A model generated the notes under the pieces. It saw only the letters and a list, made by a program, of their open reading frames with translations, was not told the origin of the DNA and did not search any database. Positions 18,854 to 55,997 of a stretch of 57,125 nucleotides of DNA are shown one piece after another. The first letter of the stretch is position 1. Each line of letters starts with the position of its first letter. Position numbers and translations under genes: made by a program. The DNA is from Candidatus Nezhaarchaeales archaeon (GTDB lineage: Archaea; Thermoproteota; Methanomethylicia; Nezhaarchaeales; WYZ-LMO8). The stretch covers positions 11,110 to 68,234 of the forward strand of contig DAIQQE010000001.1 in assembly GCA_036786905.1 (NCBI GenBank). The letters run 5' to 3'.

Positions 18854-19273
18854 TTGAAAGTCCTTAGGACCAAGGCCCTGCTTGACAAGTTGACAATCGA
18901 AGACGCCATGCGATGCCTGCTAGGTCTAAGCAGGGACGAGGTCAAGGTCTACTTCATGCTCCTGAATAAGCCCATGACCGTCGAGGAAATAGCCGAGCTG
19001 TTGAGCAAGAGCAAGCCAACCGCCTACAGGATAGCCGTTAAGCTCACGAACATGGGCCTCTTAATCAGGAGACCATACATAATCGATAGGGGAGGCTATT
19101 ACTACAAGTACGAGGCCGTCGAGCCCGATAAGGTCAAGAAGAGCATTCAAGAGGTCCTGAACCTCGTGTGCAAGAGGGTCTTGGAAGCGCTGAACCAGGA
19201 CTTCATAGAAGTAATGAAGAGGCTACAGAGCAGCGGGTCCAAAGAGGAAGGGGAGGACTTCGACTCCAAGTGA
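18854..19273 (+). CDS. TrmB-like winged-helix transcriptional regulator
   Basis: LLGLSRDEVKVYFMLLNKPMTVEEIAELLSKSKPTAYRIAVKLTNMGLL is the TrmB N-terminal HTH pattern. TTG start, and an internal ATG (MRCLLGLS) is possible. Confidence 0.6.
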   Translation: MKVLRTKALLDKLTIEDAMRCLLGLSRDEVKVYFMLLNKPMTVEEIAELLSKSKPTAYRIAVKLTNMGLLIRRPYIIDRGGYYYKYEAVEPDKVKKSIQEVLNLVCKRVLEALNQDFIEVMKRLQSSGSKEEGEDFDSK

Positions 19274-19356: not shown

Positions 19357-19824
19357 TTGTCCACTAGGGTATCGGCCCTCCAAGTTTACAAGTTCCTGCC
19401 CGGGATCAATTGCAAGAAATGCGGAACCACTTGCATGGGCTTCGCAGTCAAGCTCATCAGGAGGGAGGCCAAGATAGAGGACTGCCCCCCGCTCATCGGC
19501 GACCCCAAGTACTCCGATAAGCTGGCGAAGCTCAGAGAGCTCCTGGCGCCCATACTCTCAGCCGCGGAGACGCTGGTTCAGGTGGACCCGGAGAAGTGCA
19601 TAGGATGTGGCAACTGCATAGTGGCGTGCCCCGAAAACGTGATCTTAGACCCGTCGTCGGCCAGGGGGCGCAACCCCAAGAGCCCCGACGCGCTGTGGAC
19701 CGTGGAGGACGGCAAGATAAAGGTCCTGCACCTCGAGAAGTGCAGGCGCTACCCGCCCTCGAGGATGAACTGCAACGTTTGCGAGCTCGTCTGCTATAGC
19801 GGCGCAATAAAGGTGGTGGCTTAG
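19357..19824 (+). CDS. Fe-S protein: N-terminal CdhE/RnfB-type FeS domain plus a ferredoxin-like domain
   Basis: The FeS-domain pattern is YKFLPGINCKKCGTTCMGFAVKL...DCPPL. It is followed by CIGCGNCIVACP and CNVCELVC. TTG start. Confidence 0.65.
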   Translation: MSTRVSALQVYKFLPGINCKKCGTTCMGFAVKLIRREAKIEDCPPLIGDPKYSDKLAKLRELLAPILSAAETLVQVDPEKCIGCGNCIVACPENVILDPSSARGRNPKSPDALWTVEDGKIKVLHLEKCRRYPPSRMNCNVCELVCYSGAIKVVA

Positions 19825-19826
19825 AG

Positions 19827-21062
19827 GTGATGGTCGAGAACGTCGTGTGCACGGGCTGCTCACTACTCTGTGACGACGTCGACGTGGAGGTTGAGGGCCC
19901 CTCGGTGGTCAAGACCAAGGGGGCTTGCAGCCACGGAGACGCGAGGTTAAGGATCCCTCAGCGGAGCAGGCTTAAGGAGGCTTTGGTGAACGGCAATAAG
20001 GTTGACGTCGATAAGGCGATCGACGAGCTTGCAGAGATGTTGAAGTCGGCCAAGAGGCCTCTGATATACGGGGGAGATTGCTCGAGTAACGCTACCATAG
20101 AGTTGGCGCTGAAGGTGGCCGAGAAGCTGGGCGCTTACTACGACGCTCCTTGGTCGATATGTAGGGCCCTAATACCGCTCCAAGAAGAGCTGGGGGTCGA
20201 GGGCTCGAGGCTCGAAGAGACACTCGACGAGGCCGACTTCGTGATCTACTGGGGGGTCAGCGCGGCGGACACCCACTTGCGGCATGCGAGCCGCTACGCG
20301 GTCATGCCTAGGGGCGGCGTGGCAAAGATGGGTAGGGAGAGCAGGATTGTGGCGTCGATCGACGTCAGGGAGTCTATGGGCATGAGGATAGCCCAGCACA
20401 GGGTCCTCATAGACGTTTGCTCGGACGTCGAGGTGGCGAGAGCCATCGCAGACTTAATCGACGGGCGCGCCCCGCGGCTGAGGGCCGAGGTCACGAGACA
20501 ACTGGCCCTTTTGGTCTCGGACCTCAAAAGAGCCTCTTTCGTGGCTATGTTCGTGGGCTCGAGCGCCTTGAGGTGCTCCAAGGACGGAGGAGCCGTGAGA
20601 GCAGTCTTGGAGCTTGCCAAGAAGCTAAGCGCTAGGTGCAAGTGCTCAGTCCACCCGATGGCGGAGAGCGTGAACTCCTACGGCCAGGCGAGGGCCATGT
20701 GGAGGGCCTTGAAGACTTGCTCTCCCTACGACTTCAGAGAGGGGAGGCCGACTGAGCCGATACAGGCCTTAGCCTCGCGAGGGGCCTTGGACCTCGTCTT
20801 CGCCGTTAACAGCGACGTCTTGGCCCACATCCCCCTAGGAGCCTCTAAGATGCTCAGGGGCAGAGTTTGTTGCACGACCGAGCTGAAGAGCGTGACTCAA
20901 GCGCACTCGAGGGTGGCCATACCGGTCAAGATGTTGGGCGTCGAAGCGGGAGGAACCGTGACCAGGACCGACGGCGTCGAGGTAGAGCTCAAGCCCTTCA
21001 TGGCCAACGAGGAAGTCATCAGCGAGGAGGAAGTCTTAAGCCGCTTGTTAGCCCTCATCTAA
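19827..21062 (+). CDS. FwdB/FmdB-like molybdo/tungstopterin oxidoreductase subunit
   Basis: The N-terminus VVCTGCSLLCDDVDVEVEG...GACSHG carries the C-x2-C-x3-C...C Fe4S4 motif and is typical of formylmethanofuran dehydrogenase subunit B. 411 aa. It starts 3 nt after the preceding stop. Confidence 0.65.
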   Translation: MMVENVVCTGCSLLCDDVDVEVEGPSVVKTKGACSHGDARLRIPQRSRLKEALVNGNKVDVDKAIDELAEMLKSAKRPLIYGGDCSSNATIELALKVAEKLGAYYDAPWSICRALIPLQEELGVEGSRLEETLDEADFVIYWGVSAADTHLRHASRYAVMPRGGVAKMGRESRIVASIDVRESMGMRIAQHRVLIDVCSDVEVARAIADLIDGRAPRLRAEVTRQLALLVSDLKRASFVAMFVGSSALRCSKDGGAVRAVLELAKKLSARCKCSVHPMAESVNSYGQARAMWRALKTCSPYDFREGRPTEPIQALASRGALDLVFAVNSDVLAHIPLGASKMLRGRVCCTTELKSVTQAHSRVAIPVKMLGVEAGGTVTRTDGVEVELKPFMANEEVISEEEVLSRLLALI

Positions 21063-21072
21063 GTGACTTGAG

Positions 21073-23454
21073 ATGTCCCAGCGCGACGACGCGTCGAGCC
21101 ACGTAGGGCCAGAAAAGGTGTTGCTCTTCGTATGCAGGTGTGGAACTAACATAGCCGGAGTGGTGGACGTAGAGAGAGTGGTCAAGCACTTCTCTGGGAG
21201 AGAGGGAGTCGTCGTCAGCGACCAAGAGCACTGCTGTAGCGATGAGGGGATTAAGAAGATAAAGGAGGCGATAGAGAAGGAGGGGGCCTCCAGGCTCGTA
21301 ATAGCTTGTTGCACTCCATCGCTCCACGGGGAGCTTTTTAGGAGGGTGGCCGAAGAGGCGGGCTTGAACAGGGGCTTCGTGGAGATAGCGAACATCAGGG
21401 AGCAGTGCTCCTGGGTCCACTACCACGACCCCGCGAGGGCCACCAGCAAGGCGATAGACCTCATAGAGATGGCGTTGGCGGCGGCGCTCTACGCCCTGCC
21501 GGCCAAGGTGGTCAAGGTGCCAGCGGAGCGCTCTGTTCTAGTAGTAGGCGGAGGGGTCGCTGGAGTCACGGCGGCCCTCTCTCTAGCCGAGATGGGCTTC
21601 AAGGTTTACTTAGTGGAGAGGGAGGGCTTCATCGGAGGGCACATGGCGAAGTGGGACAAGGTGTACCCGACGCTCGATTGTAGCATATGCGTCTTGGGGC
21701 CCCGGCTGTCCAAGGCGTACAACCACCCCAATATAGAGATATTGACCTTGAGCGAGGTCAAATCGGTGAAGGGCTTTCCGGGCAACTACGAGGTCGAGGT
21801 TCTTAAGAGGGCTAGGTACGTCGACGAAAGGCTCTGCAACGGGTGCAATAAGTGCCTCGAGGTCTGCCCGATACAGCTCCCCAACGAGTACAACTACGGC
21901 ATCGGGCTTAGATCGGCGGTCGTAAAGCCATATCCCGAGGCAGTCCCCCAAGCCCCGTACATAGACCTGAAGCACTGCATCGGATGCTATTGTTGCGTGG
22001 GGGTCTGCGACCCCAAGGCCATAAACTTCAAGGAAGAGGACAGGGTCGTCAAGCTCAAGGTCGGGGCCATAATAGTGGCTGTGGGCTTCGAGCCCTTCAA
22101 CCCCAAGGCCCTCGACGAATACGGCTACGGCAAGATACCGGACGTCATCACGAGTGCCGAGTACGAGAGGTTATTGAACAGCTCGGGGCCCACAAAGGGG
22201 AGGGTCGTCAGGGTGTCGGACGGTAGAGAGCCCAAGAGAATAGCCTTCATACAATGCGTCGGGAGCAGGAGCGACAGGATAGGCCGCAGGTACTGTAGCA
22301 GGGTGTGCTGCAACAACGCAATAAAGCAGGCCATCCAAACGAAGCTCGCAATGCCCGACGTCGACATCACGATATTCTACGTTGACGTGAGGGCGACGGG
22401 GAGGCTCGCCGAGGAGGCTTACCGACGAGCAATGGACATGGGGATAAACTTCGTCAAGGCGAAGGTAGGCGAGCTGAGGAGGACGAAGAGCGGGAAGGTG
22501 AAGGTATTCTACGAGGACGTCCTGAGCCGCGAGTTCGTGGAAGAGGAGTTCGACTTAGTGGTCTTGAGCGTGGGGATGGAGCCTCCCAAGGGACTCAAGA
22601 GCCTAGCTTCGATGTTGGGGGTGCCCCTGAGCGAGGACGAATTCCTATCTGAGTACCACCTTAAGCTGAACCCCGCCGATACCTTCATTAAAGGGGTCTA
22701 CGTGGCCGGCGCCTGCTCAGGCCCTAAGGACATAACCGAGACCGTGGCCCAAGCCGGCCTGGCGGCGTCCAGGGTCGCGGAGCTCTTGGGTAAGGGAGAG
22801 ATAGAACTCGAGGTGCAGGCTCCGGTGATTGACAGGTCCAAGTGCAAGCTTTGCCTAAACTGCGTCAACGCTTGCCCCTTCGGTGCCATGAGGGCTGGCG
22901 AGGGGGCCGTTGAGGTCGATGAAGTGGCGTGCAGGGGTTGCGGAGCTTGCGCGGCCGCATGCCCCACAGGGGCTCTCACCCCCTCAAGCTACTTAAATGA
23001 CAAGCAGATATCGGCAATGCTGAGAGCCCTGCTGTCGAGGAGGAGCGAGTACCCCATCGTGGTCGCGTTCATGTGCTCGTGGTGCGGCTACGCGGCGGCC
23101 GACAACGCCGGCCTCAACAAGATGCTCTACCCCACCAACGTCAGGATCATCAGGGTCCCCTGTGCGGTGAGGGTCTCCCCAAACCACGTTTTGGAGGCTC
23201 TGAGGCTAGGCGCAGATGGAGTGATGATATTGGGTTGCTACGAACAGGACTGCCACTACAGGGTCGGGAGGGTCAGGGCCAATGAGAGGGTCGAGGTCCT
23301 CAAGGAGCTCTTGAAGAGCGTCGGCATGAGGGCCGAGAGGCTCGTAATAGAGGGAGCGGCCGCATCGGAGGGCAAGAGGGTGGCCGAGCTCGTGAGGTCG
23401 TTCACCGAGAAGGTGGCCGAGCTCGGGCCCGTAGGCTCGGAGTTCGAGGTGTAG
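21073..23454 (+). CDS. hdrA: Heterodisulfide reductase subunit A fused to an MvhD-like C-terminal domain
   Basis: The N-terminal domain is VLLFVCRCGTNIAG and the FAD motif is VLVVGGGVAGVTAAL. Cluster motifs are CNGCNKCLEVCP, CIGCYCCVGVCDP, CKLCLNCVNACP and CRGCGACAAACP. The MvhD-like tail VVAFMCSWCGYAAADNAG...ILGCYEQDCHY spans about 23047..23451. Confidence 0.9.
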   Translation: MSQRDDASSHVGPEKVLLFVCRCGTNIAGVVDVERVVKHFSGREGVVVSDQEHCCSDEGIKKIKEAIEKEGASRLVIACCTPSLHGELFRRVAEEAGLNRGFVEIANIREQCSWVHYHDPARATSKAIDLIEMALAAALYALPAKVVKVPAERSVLVVGGGVAGVTAALSLAEMGFKVYLVEREGFIGGHMAKWDKVYPTLDCSICVLGPRLSKAYNHPNIEILTLSEVKSVKGFPGNYEVEVLKRARYVDERLCNGCNKCLEVCPIQLPNEYNYGIGLRSAVVKPYPEAVPQAPYIDLKHCIGCYCCVGVCDPKAINFKEEDRVVKLKVGAIIVAVGFEPFNPKALDEYGYGKIPDVITSAEYERLLNSSGPTKGRVVRVSDGREPKRIAFIQCVGSRSDRIGRRYCSRVCCNNAIKQAIQTKLAMPDVDITIFYVDVRATGRLAEEAYRRAMDMGINFVKAKVGELRRTKSGKVKVFYEDVLSREFVEEEFDLVVLSVGMEPPKGLKSLASMLGVPLSEDEFLSEYHLKLNPADTFIKGVYVAGACSGPKDITETVAQAGLAASRVAELLGKGEIELEVQAPVIDRSKCKLCLNCVNACPFGAMRAGEGAVEVDEVACRGCGACAAACPTGALTPSSYLNDKQISAMLRALLSRRSEYPIVVAFMCSWCGYAAADNAGLNKMLYPTNVRIIRVPCAVRVSPNHVLEALRLGADGVMILGCYEQDCHYRVGRVRANERVEVLKELLKSVGMRAERLVIEGAAASEGKRVAELVRSFTEKVAELGPVGSEFEV

Positions 23455-23457
23455 GCC

Positions 23458-24762
23458 TTGCAGTCATCTAAGCCTATTGTGGAGGTCGAGGTGGGAGAAG
23501 AGGTCCTTAGCTACAAGTGGAAGGCCCCGGTCTTGGAAAAGAGGCTGGTCTACGATGTTCAGAAGTGCTTCGGCTGTGGCCTCTGCAAAGTCGTGTGCCC
23601 TGTGAGCGCAATATCGATGGGCCCCGTGAAGGAGATAGCGTCGAGGAGGGTCGAGGCCCCCTACATAATAATCGACGAGACGAAGTGCGTCGTCTGCCCC
23701 CTCTGCTCCTCGATATGCCCCTCTGGCGCCTTGAGGGTCGAGGCTCCATCGGACTTCGAACATCCGAGAGTCAAGGGGCGCATAGAGGTGCAACGAGACA
23801 AGTGCATCCCGTGTCTGCTATGCAAGAAGGTCTGCCCGACGAAGGCGATAAAGGCCGAGGTCTCGGTCGAGAGGAGGGAACGCCTCGTCAGGTACCTCCG
23901 AGAGGGGGAGGCTTGGGGCAAGGGGAGGATAAAAATCGAAGTCGAAAAGTGTTGCTTCTGCGGCCTGTGCGAGCTCCTCTGCGACGCTGTAAGGATAGAG
24001 TGGGCTGACCCTCGGCCCCCCGACTTCAGACCAGGGCTTTCGATAACCGTCAGCGAGGAGAAGTGCGACTACTGCGGCCTGTGCGAGAAGATATGTCCCG
24101 TGAAGGCGATAGAGGTCGAGTGCTTGGAGTCCGCGCCCAGAGAGGTCGGCGAGCCCAAGGTTGAGGGCTCGATAGAGGTCGGCGAGGGTTGCTTGTGGTG
24201 CGGGCTCTGTAGCAAGGTCTGCCCAGTGCAAGCAATCGAGGTGGAGAAGCCGTTCGATGGGGACGTATACATGGTCGAGCCGAACGAGTGCGACCCCTCG
24301 GGGTGCAAGAACTGCATCAACATATGCCCGACGAAGGTGGTCTACGTCGCCAAACCCCCGTCGAAGGAGAAGGTGGTCTTCGCGAAGGACTACTGCGTGT
24401 TCTGCGGCGCCTGCGAGAAGTCCTGCCCTGTAGACGCGATCAGGGTCGTCAGGAAGAGCATGAGGGTCGAGGGCTCGAACTCCCCTTGGTTCGGGATGAG
24501 CTACGAGCAATTCAAGAAAGTCCTGCAGGGCTACAGGCCCTCTAAGCCGAGCATTTACCACAGGACCGTCAAGATAGAGGAGGTGCCGACGGCCCTTCCA
24601 CAGCCATCGCCCATTCCCCCGACTCCTAAGGGCTTTGACAAAGCAGTCGAGGGCATCAATAAGGTCATGGAGTTGCTGTCCAACGTGCCAGGAAGGGTCC
24701 TCTTCGAGCGCCGCGAGGTCGATAAGTTGCTCTCGAGGCTAAGAGGTGAAGAGGGTGACTAG
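23458..24762 (+). CDS. Polyferredoxin with eight [4Fe-4S] binding motifs (FwdF/MvhB-like) plus a non-Fe-S tail of about 100 aa
   Basis: Eight motifs: CFGCGLCKVVCP, CVVCPLCSSICP, CIPCLLCKKVCP, CCFCGLCELLCD, CDYCGLCEKICP, CLWCGLCSKVCP, CKNCINICP, CVFCGACEKSCP. TTG start 4 nt after the hdrA stop. Confidence 0.85.
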   Translation: MQSSKPIVEVEVGEEVLSYKWKAPVLEKRLVYDVQKCFGCGLCKVVCPVSAISMGPVKEIASRRVEAPYIIIDETKCVVCPLCSSICPSGALRVEAPSDFEHPRVKGRIEVQRDKCIPCLLCKKVCPTKAIKAEVSVERRERLVRYLREGEAWGKGRIKIEVEKCCFCGLCELLCDAVRIEWADPRPPDFRPGLSITVSEEKCDYCGLCEKICPVKAIEVECLESAPREVGEPKVEGSIEVGEGCLWCGLCSKVCPVQAIEVEKPFDGDVYMVEPNECDPSGCKNCINICPTKVVYVAKPPSKEKVVFAKDYCVFCGACEKSCPVDAIRVVRKSMRVEGSNSPWFGMSYEQFKKVLQGYRPSKPSIYHRTVKIEEVPTALPQPSPIPPTPKGFDKAVEGINKVMELLSNVPGRVLFERREVDKLLSRLRGEEGD

Positions 24763-25095
24763 ACTAGTGGGCTCTCCGCTAGACTTGGAGACCACGACCT
24801 TGATCACCGACGAGTGTTGGCTTGGGCTTAGAAGCGCCATGGCATGGGGCGCGGGCGCCATGAAGGCCAGACCTCTCTTGACGCCGCTACTTATCCTCGC
24901 CCGGACCTTCACCGAGCCCTGTGGAGAGGAGACTTCCACGACGTCGCCCTCATTGACTCCGATGGAAGACGCGTCCTCTTGGCTCAAGTATATAGTCGCC
25001 GACTCTTTGAAGTACTCCTCGCTCAAGGACCCGAGGCGTTTAGCCCTCTCAAAGTCGTGGAAGCCCTCTAGGACTAGAGTGAGCTCGAGTCTCAT
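24739..25095 (-). CDS. FwdD/FmdD-like molybdopterin-dinucleotide-binding (Molydop_binding) protein, encoded antisense to the surrounding cluster
   Basis: MRLELTLVLEG...IYLSQEDASSIGVNEGDVVEVSSPQGSVKVRARIS...GLAFMAPAPHAMALL resembles FwdD (L.L.TGR...; ..eD...LGV.eGD.V.V.S..G.V.V.a; G...iP.gPwAn). The ORF is open to 25155, but Met21 (ATG 25095) matches family N-termini and the TATA position. Confidence 0.65.
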   Translation of the reverse strand: MRLELTLVLEGFHDFERAKRLGSLSEEYFKESATIYLSQEDASSIGVNEGDVVEVSSPQGSVKVRARISSGVKRGLAFMAPAPHAMALLSPSQHSSVIKVVVSKSSGEPTSLVTLFTS

Positions 25096-25111
25096 GGCGA
25101 GTCTATAGGGG

Positions 25112-25597
25112 GTGGAGACCATAAATAAGCTTTCCTCGGAGCCCAAGAAGTGCATTCAGTGCGGCGCCTGCACCTCGACTTGCGTCGTCTCGAGGGCCAC
25201 TAAGAGGTTCAACCCTAGGTTGTTGGTCTACGCCGCTAAGAAGGGATTGCTGACGGAGAGCGAGGACATATGGCTATGCCTGAACTGCCACATCTGTGAG
25301 GCTAGGTGCCCCGACTCGGTCAAGATCTCGGACATGATACTTGAGGCTAGAAGGAGGGTCTTGGAGAGGCACGGCGAGGACAGGGTCTTGGAGTTCTACT
25401 CGAGCTTCGTCAGGGCTCTGCTCAACAGCGGCGTGATAGCCTTCGTCACCAGCAGCAGGGTCGAGGACTTCAAGTCAGAGAGCGGGCTCAACGTCCCGGC
25501 GCTTGCTGAGCCCTTGAAGTCGGAGCTCCGCGAGTTCTTGAAGAAGATAAACTTAGAGGTCAGATTGAGAGAGGTTATGGGAATTGAGAGGGAGTGA
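25112..25597 (+). CDS. hdrC: Heterodisulfide reductase subunit C
   Basis: Motifs are CIQCGACTSTC and CLNCHICEARCP. 161 aa with a GTG start. It overlaps the hdrB start by 14 bp. Confidence 0.8.
   Translation: METINKLSSEPKKCIQCGACTSTCVVSRATKRFNPRLLVYAAKKGLLTESEDIWLCLNCHICEARCPDSVKISDMILEARRRVLERHGEDRVLEFYSSFVRALLNSGVIAFVTSSRVEDFKSESGLNVPALAEPLKSELREFLKKINLEVRLREVMGIERE
25121..25128 (-). promoter_or_regulatory. TATA-like box (TTATTTAT on the minus strand) for the FwdD-like gene, embedded in the hdrC coding sequence
   Basis: The plus strand reads ataaataa. The centre lies about 29 nt upstream of ATG 25095, consistent with leaderless geometry. Confidence 0.4.
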
Positions 25598-26456
25598 GGA
25601 GAGAAGGGAGGTCGTCCTATACCCCGGTTGCGTCTCCCTCAATAAGTACCCTGGGATCGTAAAGTCGTCGATCGAGTTGTTAAAGCTCCTCAACGTGAAC
25701 GTCAAGCTCCCAACTAACATGCTGTGCTGCTCGCGCCCTCTCGAGAGGATAGGGATTATAGGGGAAGAACACACGAATGCGCTCGCCTACTTTAACATAG
25801 CCAAGCTCATGGGCAACCCGGACGAGGTCGTGGTGGTGTGCAATGGTTGCTACCTAGCTTTTCGTAGGGCGCTTGAGGGCGACGATTTAAAGAGGGACCT
25901 AAGTGTCAGGGCCAAGTGCTACCACGTGGCCGAGATTCTGTGGCACAACAGGCGCGAGCTAGCCGAGAGGGCGAGGGTTGGGCTCGACAAGTTGAAGGTG
26001 GCGATCCACGTGGGCTGCCACTATCTCTTCTACCCTCACGGCGACGTCATCAGAGGAGAGGAGGGGGAGGACATTTTAGAGGACATAGCCCTCGCACTTA
26101 ACGCGAGCGTAGTTGACTACGAGGAGAGGCGGACCTGTTGCGGAGGGACTATCGTCAAGTGGTTCAGAGAAGTCGCTTCCTCAATACCTAAGAGGAAGTT
26201 AGAGAGCGTCATGGAAAGCGGGGCCAACGTCATCTTGACAATGTGCCCCTACTGCTTGAGGACCTTCAACAGAGTCCAGCAGAGGCTCAAGAAGCTTAAG
26301 AAGATTGAGAGGGTCGTGCCGACGCTCCACGTCTCCCAGCTCGTCGCAATAGCCTTGGGCTTGGACCCCCTGAGGGTCGCTGGGCTCCACCTGCAAATGC
26401 CGGCCCAAGAGCTTGAGGCCCTGCGCAGCCTCTTGACTTCTCAATCTCCGCCTTGA
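25584..26456 (+). CDS. hdrB: Heterodisulfide reductase subunit B (two CCG-type domains)
   Basis: The first Cys set is YPGC...LCCS...CNGC. The second is HVGC...TCCGG...MCPYC. 290 aa. Confidence 0.85.
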   Translation: MRGSEERREVVLYPGCVSLNKYPGIVKSSIELLKLLNVNVKLPTNMLCCSRPLERIGIIGEEHTNALAYFNIAKLMGNPDEVVVVCNGCYLAFRRALEGDDLKRDLSVRAKCYHVAEILWHNRRELAERARVGLDKLKVAIHVGCHYLFYPHGDVIRGEEGEDILEDIALALNASVVDYEERRTCCGGTIVKWFREVASSIPKRKLESVMESGANVILTMCPYCLRTFNRVQQRLKKLKKIERVVPTLHVSQLVAIALGLDPLRVAGLHLQMPAQELEALRSLLTSQSPP

Positions 26457-53059: not shown

Positions 53060-54760
53060 TTAGAGCAGCTCACCCCTCGAGAGCCTCCTGTAGGCCTCCT
53101 CGAGCCCCAACTCGTGCGCCTTGACGACTGCCCTGAAGACGTCGTAGTAGTCGAGCACGTTCTTGTCTACGAGGAGCCTCAAGTACTTAGCCCTCAGCTC
53201 GAGCTCCTCGTATATCAGCTTCACGTCCCTCTTCGAGACGCCCCTCATGACGGCGATCTTCTCCTCGAGCAAGTAGCTCGCCCCCCTGCCGGCGAACCTG
53301 TGGACGTCCCTCGTCGGGTCCCACAGGAACACCGGTATGGCGGCTATTGAGTCCGTGCGAGGGTCGTAGCCGACTATCTCGTTGACGGAGGTCATCCTGC
53401 GTACGAGCATGCCCCGCTTGTCATAGACCGAGGACTGGAACCAAGCTATGTTTAGGGCGTCGAGGTTAGTCTTGGGGACGCTGATCGGCGGGTTCGTCAA
53501 CCTCTGCAGGAGCCTCTCGAGGTTCGCGGCGTGGAACGTGGAGAGGACGGGGTGCCCGGTCTGTATCGCTTGGAAGGCTATGTTGCCCTCGGCCCCCCTT
53601 ATCTCCCCCACTATGATGTAGTTCGGTCGCTGGCGGAGAGCCGCCTTGAGGAGGTCGAACATCGTCACGCTGCTCTCAGGCTTGCCCGTGTCCCTCGTCA
53701 GCTCCCTGACCCAGTTCTTGTGAGGGAGCGTCACCTCCGCCGTGTCCTCGATTGAGACCACCTTGTAACTGGGGCGTATGAAGACCGCCAAGGCGTTTAG
53801 TGTCGTGGTCTTGCCGCTCGCCGTCTCCCCGCAGACGAAGGCGCTCATCCCCTCAGAGAGCATCATCCACATGTACGCGGCGGCGAGCTCGTTGAAGGTG
53901 TTCCACTTAATTAACTGCGTGACGCTTATCGGCGTCTTGGCGACCTTTCGTATCGTGAAGTTGCTTCCAAAGAGGCTGACGTCGGTGCCGTAGACTATGT
54001 TCAGCCTGCTACCGTCGGGGAGGGTGGCGTCGACGACAGGCCGTGCCCTCGAGATTGGCTTGCCGATCTTCTCTCCCAGCTTGATTATGTACTCGTCGAG
54101 CTCCTCCTCGCTACCGAAGCCGACGTTCGACTCGAGAGAGCCGAAGATCTTGTGCACGACGTAGATGTTGCCGATCCCCTTGGCGCTTATGTCCTCTAGG
54201 TAGGGATCTCTAAGGAAGGGCTCGATTACGCCCACCCCTATCTTGTCCCTTACCAAGTGGTACTTGATGTACTCCACGTCCTCCTTCCTGACGGGCACCC
54301 TCGGAAGCCCAGGCTTGACGGAGTTGTAGTTGACGGACCTGTCCTTGACGTCGAGTACCTCCTCGAGGAGCTCGAGGAGGATCTTCTTCCTCTCCTCAGC
54401 AGACTCCACCGCGTACTCCGGCTTGATCTTAGTCGCCAAGGCCTCCTCTATCGCCTTGAAGATATTGGATGGGGGCCTAGGTGGCTCCACGACTATGTAC
54501 TGGTTGAAGCCGGCCGCCGTCTTGACCAGGTTTGTTACGTGTATGAATATCCCGCCGCCCACAGGGTAGACGACGTTAATCTTTGACCACATCTTCATGT
54601 CCCCGCTTAGCCTCTCGACTATCATCGGCTCCTCTCCGTGCTGTCGCCTGAAGGACTCTACGTAGGAGGCCAAGTAGCTGGGCCTATCGCCGAAGTCAGG
54701 CTCCTTGACCTCGCTTACTCGCTTCTTCCTCCAAAGCCTTGGGATTGCGAGGCTCGGCAT
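53060..54760 (-). CDS. arlI: Archaellum assembly/motor ATPase ArlI (FlaI)
   Basis: Walker A is GETASGKTTTLNAL, with the secretion-ATPase boxes VGEIRGAE and TGHPVLSTFHA. 566 aa. Confidence 0.9.
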   Translation of the reverse strand: MPSLAIPRLWRKKRVSEVKEPDFGDRPSYLASYVESFRRQHGEEPMIVERLSGDMKMWSKINVVYPVGGGIFIHVTNLVKTAAGFNQYIVVEPPRPPSNIFKAIEEALATKIKPEYAVESAEERKKILLELLEEVLDVKDRSVNYNSVKPGLPRVPVRKEDVEYIKYHLVRDKIGVGVIEPFLRDPYLEDISAKGIGNIYVVHKIFGSLESNVGFGSEEELDEYIIKLGEKIGKPISRARPVVDATLPDGSRLNIVYGTDVSLFGSNFTIRKVAKTPISVTQLIKWNTFNELAAAYMWMMLSEGMSAFVCGETASGKTTTLNALAVFIRPSYKVVSIEDTAEVTLPHKNWVRELTRDTGKPESSVTMFDLLKAALRQRPNYIIVGEIRGAEGNIAFQAIQTGHPVLSTFHAANLERLLQRLTNPPISVPKTNLDALNIAWFQSSVYDKRGMLVRRMTSVNEIVGYDPRTDSIAAIPVFLWDPTRDVHRFAGRGASYLLEEKIAVMRGVSKRDVKLIYEELELRAKYLRLLVDKNVLDYYDVFRAVVKAHELGLEEAYRRLSRGELL

Positions 54761-54769
54761 GCCCTCCCC

Positions 54770-55480
54770 CTATATCTTCGCCAGCGCCATGGGGATGAGC
54801 TTTATCCCGAAGGCCGGGTCGACGTCGAATGTGATTATGTTCTCGAAGACCGTGGACGCCCCCTTCAGCTTTATTATGTTCATGAGCTTCAGCGACCTTC
54901 CGCCCATCTCTGCGTTCTTGAGCTCTATGTATCCGTCGGCTATTGCTTTGAGCCCGGAGTGGAGCGCCTCGGCGATGTCCCCCGCGTGCAGCGTCAGGAG
55001 GATGAGCTTTTCCTTGTCGACGAGCCTCTTGGCTACCGTGAGGAAGTTCGCCACGTCCTCAGTCTTGGAGCCCTTGACCAACACGCTGAAGGAGTCTATG
55101 ACGTAGACGTCGTACCTGTCCATGGCCGAGATTACGTGGTTGAGCGTGAGGGACAGGAGGTCCCTGCCAGTAGAGGGAACCCACCAGACCCTCGGTATAT
55201 GGGTCGAGTAGACCGTCAGCCGGCCCCGCACGTACATGTCCAGCACGTCGAACCCGACGTTGATCATCCCCCTCACGTAGCCCACGGTCGTTGTCTCAGT
55301 GGTCACGACTATGACCCTCAGGCTACTCTTGAGGGCGCCGTACACAAACTGCTGGACCAGCACGGACTTCCCGGCCCCGTGCTGCCCCTCCACGACTATC
55401 AGGGCTGGGAAGGGCAGCCCGCCCCCCAGCTTGGTGTCCAGCTCCTCGTTCCCGGTACTGATGGTCCTAACCTTGAGCAT
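54770..55480 (-). CDS. arlH: Archaellum RecA/KaiC-like ATP-binding protein ArlH (FlaH)
   Basis: The pattern TGNEELDTKLGGGLPFPALIVVEGQHGAGKSVL includes Walker A. 236 aa, positioned between arlF and arlI. Confidence 0.85.
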   Translation of the reverse strand: MLKVRTISTGNEELDTKLGGGLPFPALIVVEGQHGAGKSVLVQQFVYGALKSSLRVIVVTTETTTVGYVRGMINVGFDVLDMYVRGRLTVYSTHIPRVWWVPSTGRDLLSLTLNHVISAMDRYDVYVIDSFSVLVKGSKTEDVANFLTVAKRLVDKEKLILLTLHAGDIAEALHSGLKAIADGYIELKNAEMGGRSLKLMNIIKLKGASTVFENIITFDVDPAFGIKLIPMALAKI

Positions 55481-55997
55481 CGACGACCACCCACTTGGAG
55501 CCCCTCGACCCGTAGTGCGTCGTGAAGACGACCCTCAAGGGCCTCGCGGCGTCTAGGTCCTCTACGGCCGCGAAGGCCCTTATCAAGCAGGCCTCACCAG
55601 TATCTATGAGGGGGTGCTCTGTAAAGCTGACGCCGTAGCTCTCGACGAGGAAGACCTCTTCGACGGTCCAATCAGCTGGGTGGGAGAGCCTCAACGACTT
55701 GAGCGGCCCGCTCGTCGAGAAGTACTCGACTATCAGGTCGCACGCCTCGAACCTGTACACAGGATAGGGGCCCTCGTTCAGGACCGTGACGTTGACCTCC
55801 AGCAACCCCCTCGAGTAGCTCGCGCTGGCCCGCTGAATGGTTATCCTGCTCAGCCTCTTGTAGGCGATTTCGTAGCCCTCCCTTATGCTGTTCACGGCCA
55901 TCGAGATCGACGAGCCTATGGCGCCGACGATTGAGAGGGCGGCTATTATGAGCAGGACGACTGCCGCGACGCCCGGCACGACGACCTCTGAGGGCAT
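55467..55997 (-). CDS. arlF: Archaellum stator-associated protein ArlF (FlaF), assigned by synteny
   Basis: An N-terminal TM helix is followed by a beta-rich domain. It is the second of two FlaF/FlaG-like genes upstream of arlH. In the Sulfolobus operon order flaX-flaG-flaF-flaH-flaI-flaJ, this is the flaF position. Confidence 0.55.
   Translation of the reverse strand: MPSEVVVPGVAAVVLLIIAALSIVGAIGSSISMAVNSIREGYEIAYKRLSRITIQRASASYSRGLLEVNVTVLNEGPYPVYRFEACDLIVEYFSTSGPLKSLRLSHPADWTVEEVFLVESYGVSFTEHPLIDTGEACLIRAFAAVEDLDAARPLRVVFTTHYGSRGSKWVVVDAQG

Follow-up and report, generated by a model that had tools for sequence, protein, structure and literature searches.

The question raised by this locus is how hdrC and hdrB are expressed when the gene for a partner subunit lies backwards between them and the genes upstream.

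The cluster and its FwdD-like gene

On the plus strand of the window, which here means the whole stretch of 57,125 nucleotides that was analysed, the gene order is an FeS-domain ferredoxin gene (19357-19824), an fwdB-like gene (19827-21062), an hdrA-mvhD fusion gene of the HdrA2 type (21073-23454), an FwdF-like polyferredoxin gene (23458-24762; 242 bits to NF042909, below its cut-off), hdrC (25121-25597, from its probable start) and hdrB (25584-26456), and the fwdD-like gene (24739-25095, minus strand; fwdD below) lies antisense between the polyferredoxin gene and hdrC. The first three genes, which form the upstream part of the operon, are separated by gaps of 2-10 nt, the start of hdrB overlaps the stop of hdrC by 14 nt, and all plus-strand junctions in the cluster are of the coupling type. 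Along its whole length the FwdB-like protein can be aligned with solved FwdB/FmdB chains, a cysteine matching the metal-ligand position. The FwdD-like frame is 24739-25155 or 24739-25095 (-). The coordinates and overlaps given in an earlier note on this DNA, including the 24 bp by which this frame and the polyferredoxin gene overlap at their 3' ends, are correct, and its description of the FwdD-like gene as the only one on the minus strand holds for genes with family support between 19357 and 26456. The overlap of the two 3' ends is conserved in families f1 and f3; by a crude gene call of the genome 78 of 255 convergent pairs overlap, which makes such an overlap ordinary here, and divergent spacers of 30 nt or less are less common (at most 27 of 200 pairs).

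The FwdD-like gene encodes a pterin-binding beta-barrel subunit of 118 aa, as indicated by Pfam, solved structures and the substitution pattern. The protein matches PF01568 (E=1.2e-13; 51.4 bits against a cut-off of 26.8) and belongs to the stand-alone PF01568 proteins of about 120-130 aa, its N-terminus being set by the alignment of homologues; since these begin at an aligned M[RK]LEL, ATG 25095 is taken as the right start. When a profile of 13 sequences was used as the query, the best relatives of solved structure were FwdD/FmdD chains, namely 5t5i_D (6.8e-15), followed by 2ki8_A, 9sfi_S, 8rja_D and 7bkb_J. Differences from four relatives pile up at the third codon positions of the minus-strand frame (for example 9/12/51 and 27/13/73 at the three positions), and fwdD is a real gene under purifying selection, which removes the possibility, considered in the earlier note, of a spurious open reading frame. 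Because the protein scores far below the cut-off of the NCBIfam FwdD model NF042908 (34.4 bits against 175), it is called FwdD-like and assigned to a separate subfamily, which is confined to the class (151-189 bits within it and at most 84 bits elsewhere in the phylum). Profile searches of the window revealed neither fwdA nor fwdC in the cluster; FwdA is encoded on another contig, C39, and a second PF01568-type match, within a 380-aa frame on contig C229, probably belongs to a fused FwdBD, as in relatives of 580 aa.

The plus-strand frame across fwdD and the start of hdrC

A plus-strand frame of 117 codons, designated ORFx (24755-25108; alternative start GTG 24746), runs antisense to all of fwdD and shares its third codon positions. 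It is preceded by the Shine-Dalgarno (SD)-like motif GAGGTGA (24743-24749) within the 3' end of the polyferredoxin gene, whose GGTG core begins 10 nt before GTG 24755, the genome-wide GGTG peak being at -11/-12. The frame is stop-free in all 15 sequences of f1 and f3, including those with 43-47% GC, and a comparable motif, purine-rich and SD-like, was found in each of 12 relatives with the same layout and in none of five controls, relatives without hdrC downstream, in which the frame is broken in every case by 1-5 stops and has neither the start nor the SD motif. An equivalent antisense frame is open in only 6.4% of the equal-length coding windows of this genome, and among 22 crude triplets with a tightly nested gene genome-wide this locus has the largest open antisense fraction. 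Local codon usage predicts about 3 of 12 such frames to be open, giving a joint probability of about 1e-4 for six deep lineages if they are independent, a rough figure given that the 15 sequences are related and that, of the antisense frames, the one with shared wobble positions stays open by chance more easily than the others. A Fisher combination of the open-frame probabilities (p=0.12) was set aside as unsuited to yes/no outcomes, and the joint probability was used together with a column-matched control. In this control, in which the expectation comes from how these amino acids are encoded at the other positions of the genes concerned, the 45 stop-sensitive codons of fwdD contain no forbidden choice against 17.4 expected, and isoleucine before tyrosine in fwdD is encoded by ATA in 10 of 10 cases. 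These codon choices show that ORFx is kept free of stops by selection, and the comparison with the controls likewise shows that its features occur only in lineages with hdrCB downstream.

Both ends of ORFx carry the marks of a coupling chain, in which stop and start codons overlap or lie near each other and an SD motif is found inside the upstream gene. The [G/T]TG start is invariant and located at the polyferredoxin stop (in the alignment, the stop falls at +9 to +27 and the [G/T]TG at +16), each of the 12 sequences has an SD motif at either junction, and the G of the start is contributed by an fwdD codon whose third base is always C though its residue varies, while 0 of 79 other columns have an invariant third base. 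The same DNA also encodes the C-termini of the polyferredoxin and of FwdD, which possibly contributes to its conservation. At the other end, ORFx terminates at the ribosome-binding site of hdrC, with its stop -16 to +5 nt from the hdrC start in 12 sequences; this proximity was not counted as independent evidence, as the AT-rich block there has TAA in both other frames and any frame would end. A fusion of ORFx with hdrC by stop-codon read-through was also rejected, the two frames coinciding in the window, L013 and L016 and differing in other relatives.

The hdrC SD motif GGGGGTG (25108-25114) contains GTG 25112, which the earlier note had taken as the hdrC start, 16 nt from fwdD. The hdrC frame does open at this GTG, and the start is probably ATA 25121, which would put the two divergent start codons 25 nt apart. 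The motif is conserved as G[GA]GGTG in 15 of 15 sequences, ATA or ATT follows in frame 6-7 nt past it in 12 of 12 sequences and in three more, and two relatives (L016 and L019) are without a canonical hdrC start before the first cluster cysteine; because of this, GTG 25112 is probably part of the SD motif and ATA 25121 the start, to which the position of the motif relative to the genome-wide SD peak also fits. NCBI records begin hdrC at ATA, and other gene callers truncate the gene. GTG 25112 is the annotatable alternative start in the window. In this genome operon-internal genes are preceded by an SD motif 2.4 times as often as first genes, of which 16% carry one; the 3' end of the 16S rRNA, which would hold the anti-SD, was not found in this metagenome-assembled genome. 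Initiation at AUA or AUU is rare and is not known from this lineage. Since the start is probably ATA or ATT, hdrC of Nezhaarchaeales appears to be mis-called in many public gene calls, truncated and without the first Fe-S cluster motif, which would affect metabolic reconstructions of Nezhaarchaeales and Methanonezhaarchaeia.

The candidate fwdD promoter and the expression of hdrCB

The candidate core promoter of fwdD (25121-25134, minus strand) lies in the first codons of hdrC, where the A-rich GAAAGC (25134-25129) leads into the TATA-like TTATTTAT (25128-25121). The TATA-like element spans -33 to -26 from ATG 25095, is the sole AT-rich 8-mer within about 100 nt, and was found where the earlier note had placed it, inside the hdrC coding sequence. 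An AT-rich block occupies the equivalent place in all 12 relatives with this layout, 22-30 nt from the fwdD start, despite differing N-terminal residues of HdrC, and the hexamers of the promoter match hexamers enriched upstream of genes in this genome. The ATA/ATT block of hdrC doubles as the probable TATA box of fwdD. Upstream of fwdD there is no SD motif, and the gene fits the leaderless BRE/TATA pattern, with a TATA element centred about 26-30 nt upstream of the start and no SD; its mRNA is probably leaderless. The conservation of the AT-rich block could also reflect the initiation of hdrC translation alone.

As observed earlier, the interval 20-35 nt upstream of hdrC is free of TATA-like elements in the window, in which there is also no AT-rich element within 100 nt upstream of the gene. 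Because the hdrC SD motif is conserved, the hdrC mRNA is expected to have a leader. No T5 runs occur in the window between the polyferredoxin stop and hdrC, a result of little weight as evidence of read-through, since only about 0.2 would be expected per 357 nt at this GC content. Two readings had been offered previously. The first, expression of hdrCB by read-through, is favoured by the hdrC SD motif, the missing upstream TATA element in the window and ORFx with its coupling junctions; the second, promoters embedded in each other's coding regions, is supported for the fwdD element inside hdrC, and in the window the first codons of fwdD hold no AT-rich element that would act as an hdrC promoter.

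We consider the chances about even that Ca. Nezhaarchaeales conserve here a unit resembling a noncontiguous operon, with a bridge ORF that is translated. The arrangement is that of such an operon, one gene on the opposite strand being nested among functionally related genes that share an orientation. In such a unit fwdD would be transcribed as a leaderless or nearly leaderless mRNA from its own promoter, and hdrCB, having no promoter of its own in this genome, would be reached by read-through of the upstream operon across the antisense fwdD. Ribosomes leaving the polyferredoxin gene would start again on ORFx and go on translating through the antisense region, keeping transcription and translation coupled so that polarity is avoided; at the SD and start of hdrC they would terminate and then re-initiate on AUA, a weak start. 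Transcription in the two directions, along the operon and along fwdD, would collide and yield RNAs complementary to each other, which would tie the amount of FwdD to the amounts of its partners in the complex; that subunits of one complex should hamper each other's expression is odd and speaks against this reading. More tentatively, and with the balance somewhat against it, the locus may be an archaeal operon expressed through a backward-nested gene, in which a selected bridge frame hands ribosomes to an AUA- or AUU-initiated hdrC whose start is at the same time a TATA box. If true, three functions would be packed within about 30 nt, namely an SD motif, a start codon other than AUG and a TATA box for the divergent gene.

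It is possible, though unlikely, that two independent divergent promoters are instead interleaved, with a weak hdrCB promoter in the first codons of fwdD and a short leader carrying the SD motif, the upstream operon ending within fwdD and the open frame being a by-product or having another role. Embedding is feasible here, as the fwdD TATA element clearly lies within hdrC, and first genes with an SD motif exist in this genome (the 16% mentioned above); furthermore, AT-rich 8-mers are present on the hdrC strand 13-31 nt inside fwdD in the lower-GC relatives L015, L016, L017 and L071, where a TATA element would put the transcription start a few nt upstream of the SD motif, whereas the window, L013 and L014 are without an AT-rich element there. 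Interleaved promoters would also leave unexplained the stop-free ORFx, its invariant start, its SD motif at the polyferredoxin stop and the loss of these features in lineages without hdrC downstream. The AT-rich stretches in the lower-GC relatives could serve as an hdrC promoter, and read-through may not be the sole source of hdrC mRNA. An internal hdrC promoter at AAGTATATA (24986-24994), which recurs in relatives, was considered and is better explained by the Ile-Tyr codons ATA-TAY that keep ORFx open.

The selection on the open frame, start codon and SD motif would apply equally if ORFx were a second protein-coding gene overlapping fwdD in antisense, with a product of about 117 aa that has its own function, perhaps in the complex, and, of the antisense frames, the one with shared wobble positions puts the least constraint on the two proteins. 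This is improbable, as ORFx has no Pfam match, its translation is rich in Ser, Thr and Leu and of low complexity, as antisense translations typically are, and shows neither cysteine motifs nor any other recognisable feature, no listed gene call covers it in the public records examined, and any conservation at the protein level is inseparable from that imposed by fwdD.

Orientation of fwdD and comparison with known systems

The layout is common to all 15 distinct Nezhaarchaeales sequences examined, across genus, family and order. The antisense fwdD between the polyferredoxin gene and hdrCB was observed in six of seven genomes of the genus, in two more of the family and in one more of the order, and the seventh genome of the genus (75% complete) gave no fwdD match. 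In four genomes of another family fwdD is convergent on the polyferredoxin gene; in sister families, too, it faces the polyferredoxin gene from the opposite strand, there as the final member of a cdhCDE operon, and in two further families of the class it is likewise not co-oriented downstream of its partners. The earlier note had proposed a local inversion as a plausible origin and a comparison of orientation in related genomes, and the orientation of fwdD is conserved in all 14 class genomes that have the subfamily, 13 of them with fwdD opposite the polyferredoxin gene and the fourteenth with fwdD 2 kb upstream on the same strand and divergent from hdrCB. This comparison shows that the orientation and tight fit of fwdD are ancient. 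A local inversion that turned fwdD round, leaving an arrangement that is accidental and serves no adapted function, would agree with fwdD being the sole opposite-strand gene of the cluster and fitting exactly between its neighbours, but is highly improbable against the orientation conserved in all 14 genomes, the conserved signals in the junction sequences and a flank search that found only short, imperfect inverted repeats and none at the fwdD borders. A recent inversion is thus largely refuted, and an ancient inversion at the base of the class is conceivable.

In gene content the locus equals the Fwd-Hdr cluster of the cultured strain Ca. Methanonezhaarchaeum fastidiosum YNP3N, published in 2025, in which FwdB, FwdD, an FwdF-like polyferredoxin and an FwdG-like ferredoxin are colocated with HdrABC and for which a complex coupling formate oxidation to heterodisulfide and ferredoxin reduction was proposed and reported to be expressed (Kohtz et al., Sci Adv 2025, PMC12700198). 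In the passages of that account consulted here, neither the orientation of the genes nor the start codon of hdrC is discussed, and promoters and an antisense frame are likewise absent (PMC12700198). The architecture described here would bear on the assembly and regulation of the proposed formate-oxidising, bifurcating Fwd-Hdr complex. No match to McrA was found in the genome of the window (89% completeness). Canonical FwdD/FmdD subunits of formylmethanofuran dehydrogenase (PDB 5t5i_D, 7bkb_J and 8rja_D) are the best solved relatives of the FwdD-like protein and share its PF01568 beta-barrel fold family, and as in these systems it is paired with an FwdB-like subunit that keeps the metal-ligand cysteine; unlike them, it represents a class-restricted subfamily and is encoded apart from fwdA and fwdC, which are elsewhere together with the fused fwdBD.

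Translational coupling by termination and re-initiation at overlapping or abutting stop and start codons has been reviewed (PMC12548453), and archaeal polarity and the FttA/aCPSF1-dependent termination of untranslated RNA are also described (PMC11616081, PMC8116511). The geometry matches that of coupling, with the polyferredoxin stop -8 to +4 nt from the ORFx start and an SD motif at each junction, whereas in distinction from ordinary coupling ORFx is the reverse strand of a gene and its proposed role would be the act of translation and not the product. The locus could thereby serve as a test case for transcription-translation coupling and polarity in Archaea.

Noncontiguous operons were described in Staphylococcus aureus (menE-menC and others; Iturbe et al. 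2024, PMC11034616), where they are bacterial and defined by transcript mapping, and are considered here together with the excludon concept (PMC7154746, PMC12288877); such arrangements are said not to be predictable computationally (PMC11034616). These systems and the Nezhaarchaeales locus have in common an opposite gene nested between co-oriented, functionally related genes, flanking genes proposed to share one transcript, and overlapping transcripts that should influence one another. In the S. aureus cases an antagonist is typically encoded by the nested gene, whereas here the gene is archaeal and encodes a partner subunit, and the case is made by sequence comparison. We know of no report of a selected stop-free frame with its own SD motif and start across the nested gene of a noncontiguous operon. 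If the proposed reading is true, no noncontiguous operon would have been put forward for Archaea before this one, the arrangement having been demonstrated in bacteria alone to date. Such an operon would then be recognisable from sequence alone, by an antisense frame that selection keeps open and that has coupling junctions, and its conservation in archaea would carry the concept into the third domain.

Gene content of the cluster and the fwdD-like gene

The plus strand of the cluster exhibits, by ORF map and family searches, genes for a FeS-domain ferredoxin (19357-19824), an FwdB-like protein (19827-21062), an HdrA-MvhD fusion (21073-23454), a FwdF-like polyferredoxin (23458-24762) and HdrB (25584-26456), with hdrC, likely starting at ATA 25121, between fwdD and hdrB, and coupling-type junctions were observed throughout, from the first gene to hdrB. 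Alignment of the FwdB-like protein to solved FwdB chains covers its full length and places one of its cysteines at the metal-ligand position; the protein gave no match to the Pfam molybdopterin-oxidoreductase domain and scored 257 bits against TIGR03129, under the cut-off of 328 bits. Directly upstream lies a TrmB-family regulator gene (18854-19273), whose product is a candidate for controlling the operon; every family-level relative has this gene in synteny with the cluster, in the order leuA/cimA-like, trmB, FeS-ferredoxin and onward. At the other end, the 3' ends of hdrB and a convergent THUMP-SPOUT methyltransferase gene overlap by 16 bp (26441-26456). The window's own MAG (89% complete) yielded no match to McrA (PF02249) and encodes FwdA elsewhere, with the FwdA and FwdBD finds on contigs C39 and C229; the second PF01568-type match, a 380-aa frame on C229, is probably a fused FwdBD (about 580 aa in relatives). 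Near-identical proteins in public records bear names that assign the organism to Ca. Nezhaarchaeales. The Fwd-Hdr cluster may operate here in a non-methanogenic member of Nezhaarchaeales.

The fwdD-like ORF (24739-25095, minus strand) was confirmed, as the earlier note had described it, to be the sole supported minus-strand gene of the cluster, with its 3' end overlapping the polyferredoxin gene by 24 bp and its start at ATG 25095, where the N-termini of homologues align as M[RK]LEL. The minus-strand reading is not spurious, as shown by a match to PF01568 (E 1.2e-13), by a 13-homologue profile whose best solved relatives are FwdD/FmdD chains (5t5i_D, 6.8e-15), and by differences from four relatives that are concentrated at third positions of the minus frame, such as 9/12/51. 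Both this convergent overlap and the one at the hdrB 3' end are ordinary for this genome, where 78 of 255 convergent pairs overlap in a crude gene call.

The fwdD/hdrC junction

Among 12 distinct sequences and three more, the common junction along the hdrC strand comprises the fwdD start codon, a 10-17 nt spacer, G[GA]GGTG, a further 6-7 nt, and an ATA or ATT that is in frame with hdrC and within an AT-rich block. Across the genome, the GGTG peak falls 11-12 nt ahead of start codons, and operon-internal genes are preceded by SD-like pentamers 2.4 times as often as first genes are. The window's GGTG motif would lie at -10/-12 from ATA 25121, and overlaps the start codon if this is GTG 25112. 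Initiation at AUA or AUU is rare. Because the spacing fits ATA, two high-quality relatives (L016 from genome G005, L019 from G009) have no in-frame ATG, GTG or TTG before the first cluster cysteine of hdrC, and NCBI records start hdrC at ATA (157/158 aa), GGGGGTG (25108-25114) is likely the hdrC SD and ATA/ATT (ATA 25121 in the window) is the somewhat favoured start; GTG 25112, which had been taken as the start, is likely part of the SD instead. In several public gene calls made by other callers, hdrC is cut to 79-124 aa and lacks the first Fe-S cluster motif and any Pfam match. Apparent ATA/ATT starts were observed in the window (25108-25123) and in the related sequences L016, L019, L068-L071, L077, L078, L082 and L084.

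On the minus strand the AT-rich block reads TTATTTAT (25128-25121), preceded by GAAAGC, and lies 26-33 nt ahead of the fwdD ATG; within about 100 nt no other AT-rich 8-mer occurs. All relatives have the block despite differing HdrC N-terminal residues, and it agrees with hexamers that are enriched in front of this genome's genes. Placement, conservation and hexamer match support the proposal of a TATA-like box for fwdD inside the hdrC coding sequence, and the block is fairly probably the fwdD promoter; its conservation could also reflect a role in hdrC initiation, instead or in addition. No SD was found upstream of fwdD, and the sequence supports a leaderless or near-leaderless fwdD mRNA.

The putative SD of hdrC implies a leader, and its transcript would therefore begin inside or beyond fwdD. 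A local hdrC promoter inside fwdD is possible in lower-GC relatives, which carry AT-rich stretches 13-31 nt inside the gene, but in the window itself the 100 nt ahead of hdrC contain no AT-rich element, and the earlier note had likewise seen nothing TATA-like 20-35 nt upstream. Read-through of hdrCB from the upstream operon, one of that note's two readings, is favoured, and the fwdD half of the other, embedded promoters, is supported.

An open frame antisense to fwdD

The plus-strand frame sharing wobble positions with fwdD (ORFx, 24755-25108) runs from end to end of the gene without a stop in all 15 sequences where hdrC lies downstream, including sequences of 43-47% GC, whereas all five controls, relatives with fwdD but without hdrC downstream, show 1-5 interruptions. 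Only 6.4% of equal-length coding windows of this genome have that antisense frame open, and local codon usage predicts about 3 of 12 sequences; for six deep lineages, assumed independent, the joint probability comes to about 1e-4, an approximate value as the sequences are related. A control on the same tree took the 45 codons that stand before Tyr, His or Gln and at which one synonymous choice creates an antisense stop: such choices occur 0 times, whereas codon usage for these amino acids in the rest of the same genes predicts 17.4. All 10 Ile codons before Tyr are ATA (other Ile codons are 70% ATT or ATC), and T-ending codons are lacking from only 10/88 control columns and T- or C-ending codons from only 2/88. 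These patterns indicate that the frame is under selection.

In all 15 sequences ORFx starts with a GTG or TTG at a distance of exactly 16 nt from the end of the fwdD stop (24755 in the window), behind a purine-rich SD-like motif (GAGGTGA, 24743-24749), and the polyferredoxin stop lies 2 nt past this codon or 1-4 nt ahead of it. In this triply coding region, the fwdD codon behind the G that closes this start codon has C as its third base throughout, across residues V, A, T, I, L and D, while 0 of 79 other columns have an invariant third base; the residue next in fwdD is Thr or Lys, giving GTG or TTG on the opposite strand. Start and SD are both absent from the five controls, whose polyferredoxin genes do not overlap fwdD. 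ORFx ends between 16 nt before and 5 nt after the hdrC start, which was given no weight as independent evidence since no frame would get past the AT-rich block. Its sequence matched nothing in Pfam and resembles what translation of an antisense strand gives. Another opposite-strand ORF, likewise tightly nested (54637-55525; contig C46 65746-66634), is open over 85% of its length in a flank-strand frame; it was seen solely in a crude gene call by longest ORF and may be an artefact of it.

Conservation of the arrangement and comparison with known operons

By tblastn on 13 related genomes, the order polyferredoxin gene (forward), fwdD (reverse), hdrC-hdrB (forward) recurs in five more genomes from the genus, in two from the family and in one from a different family of the order. 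In four genomes of a further family fwdD is still convergent on the polyferredoxin gene with hdrCB elsewhere, and in one genome it is divergent from hdrCB, 2 kb from the fwdB-hdrA-polyferredoxin genes. The FwdD-like subfamily is confined to the class (151-189 bits within; at most 84 bits among 400 genomes of the phylum). The arrangement is very probably ancient and conserved; a local inversion, proposed earlier as its origin, is disfavoured as a recent event by the orientation kept across genus, family and order and by flanks searched without finding inverted repeats. In the loci of that further, sister family (L020, 8430-13137; L021; L023; L025), the fwdD-like gene closes an operon of cdhC, cdhD and cdhE (acetyl-CoA decarbonylase/synthase), its start overlapping the cdhE stop, and converges on the fwdB-hdrA-polyferredoxin operon; this layout suggests a functional link of the protein to the carbonyl branch.

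The antisense arrangement is confirmed and its interpretation partly supported. In the proposed model, a single mRNA would read through from the upstream operon, across antisense fwdD, into hdrCB; ribosomes would move from the polyferredoxin gene onto ORFx, translate across fwdD, stop at the hdrC SD and start again at the weak AUA codon, while fwdD would be transcribed oppositely from a promoter on the hdrC start. Untranslated RNA is a substrate of FttA/aCPSF1-dependent termination in Archaea (PMC11616081, PMC8116511), and continuous translation would avoid polarity. Judged as a whole from sequence, this read-through operon with a translated bridge stands at about an even chance.

From the cultured Ca. 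Methanonezhaarchaeum fastidiosum YNP3N, a Fwd-Hdr cluster (FwdBD, FwdF polyferredoxin, FwdG and HdrABC) is already known, with reported expression and a proposed role in formate oxidation coupled to heterodisulfide and ferredoxin reduction, and the passages covered of that source discuss neither orientation nor expression signals (PMC12700198). Gene content is therefore not new; what would be new is a conserved noncontiguous-operon variant with a translated bridge in an archaeon. On the proposed model, the nesting of fwdD in the Hdr operon would match the architecture of the bacterial noncontiguous operon or excludon (PMC11034616, PMC7154746), from which it would differ in the added translated bridge and in nesting the gene for a partner subunit.
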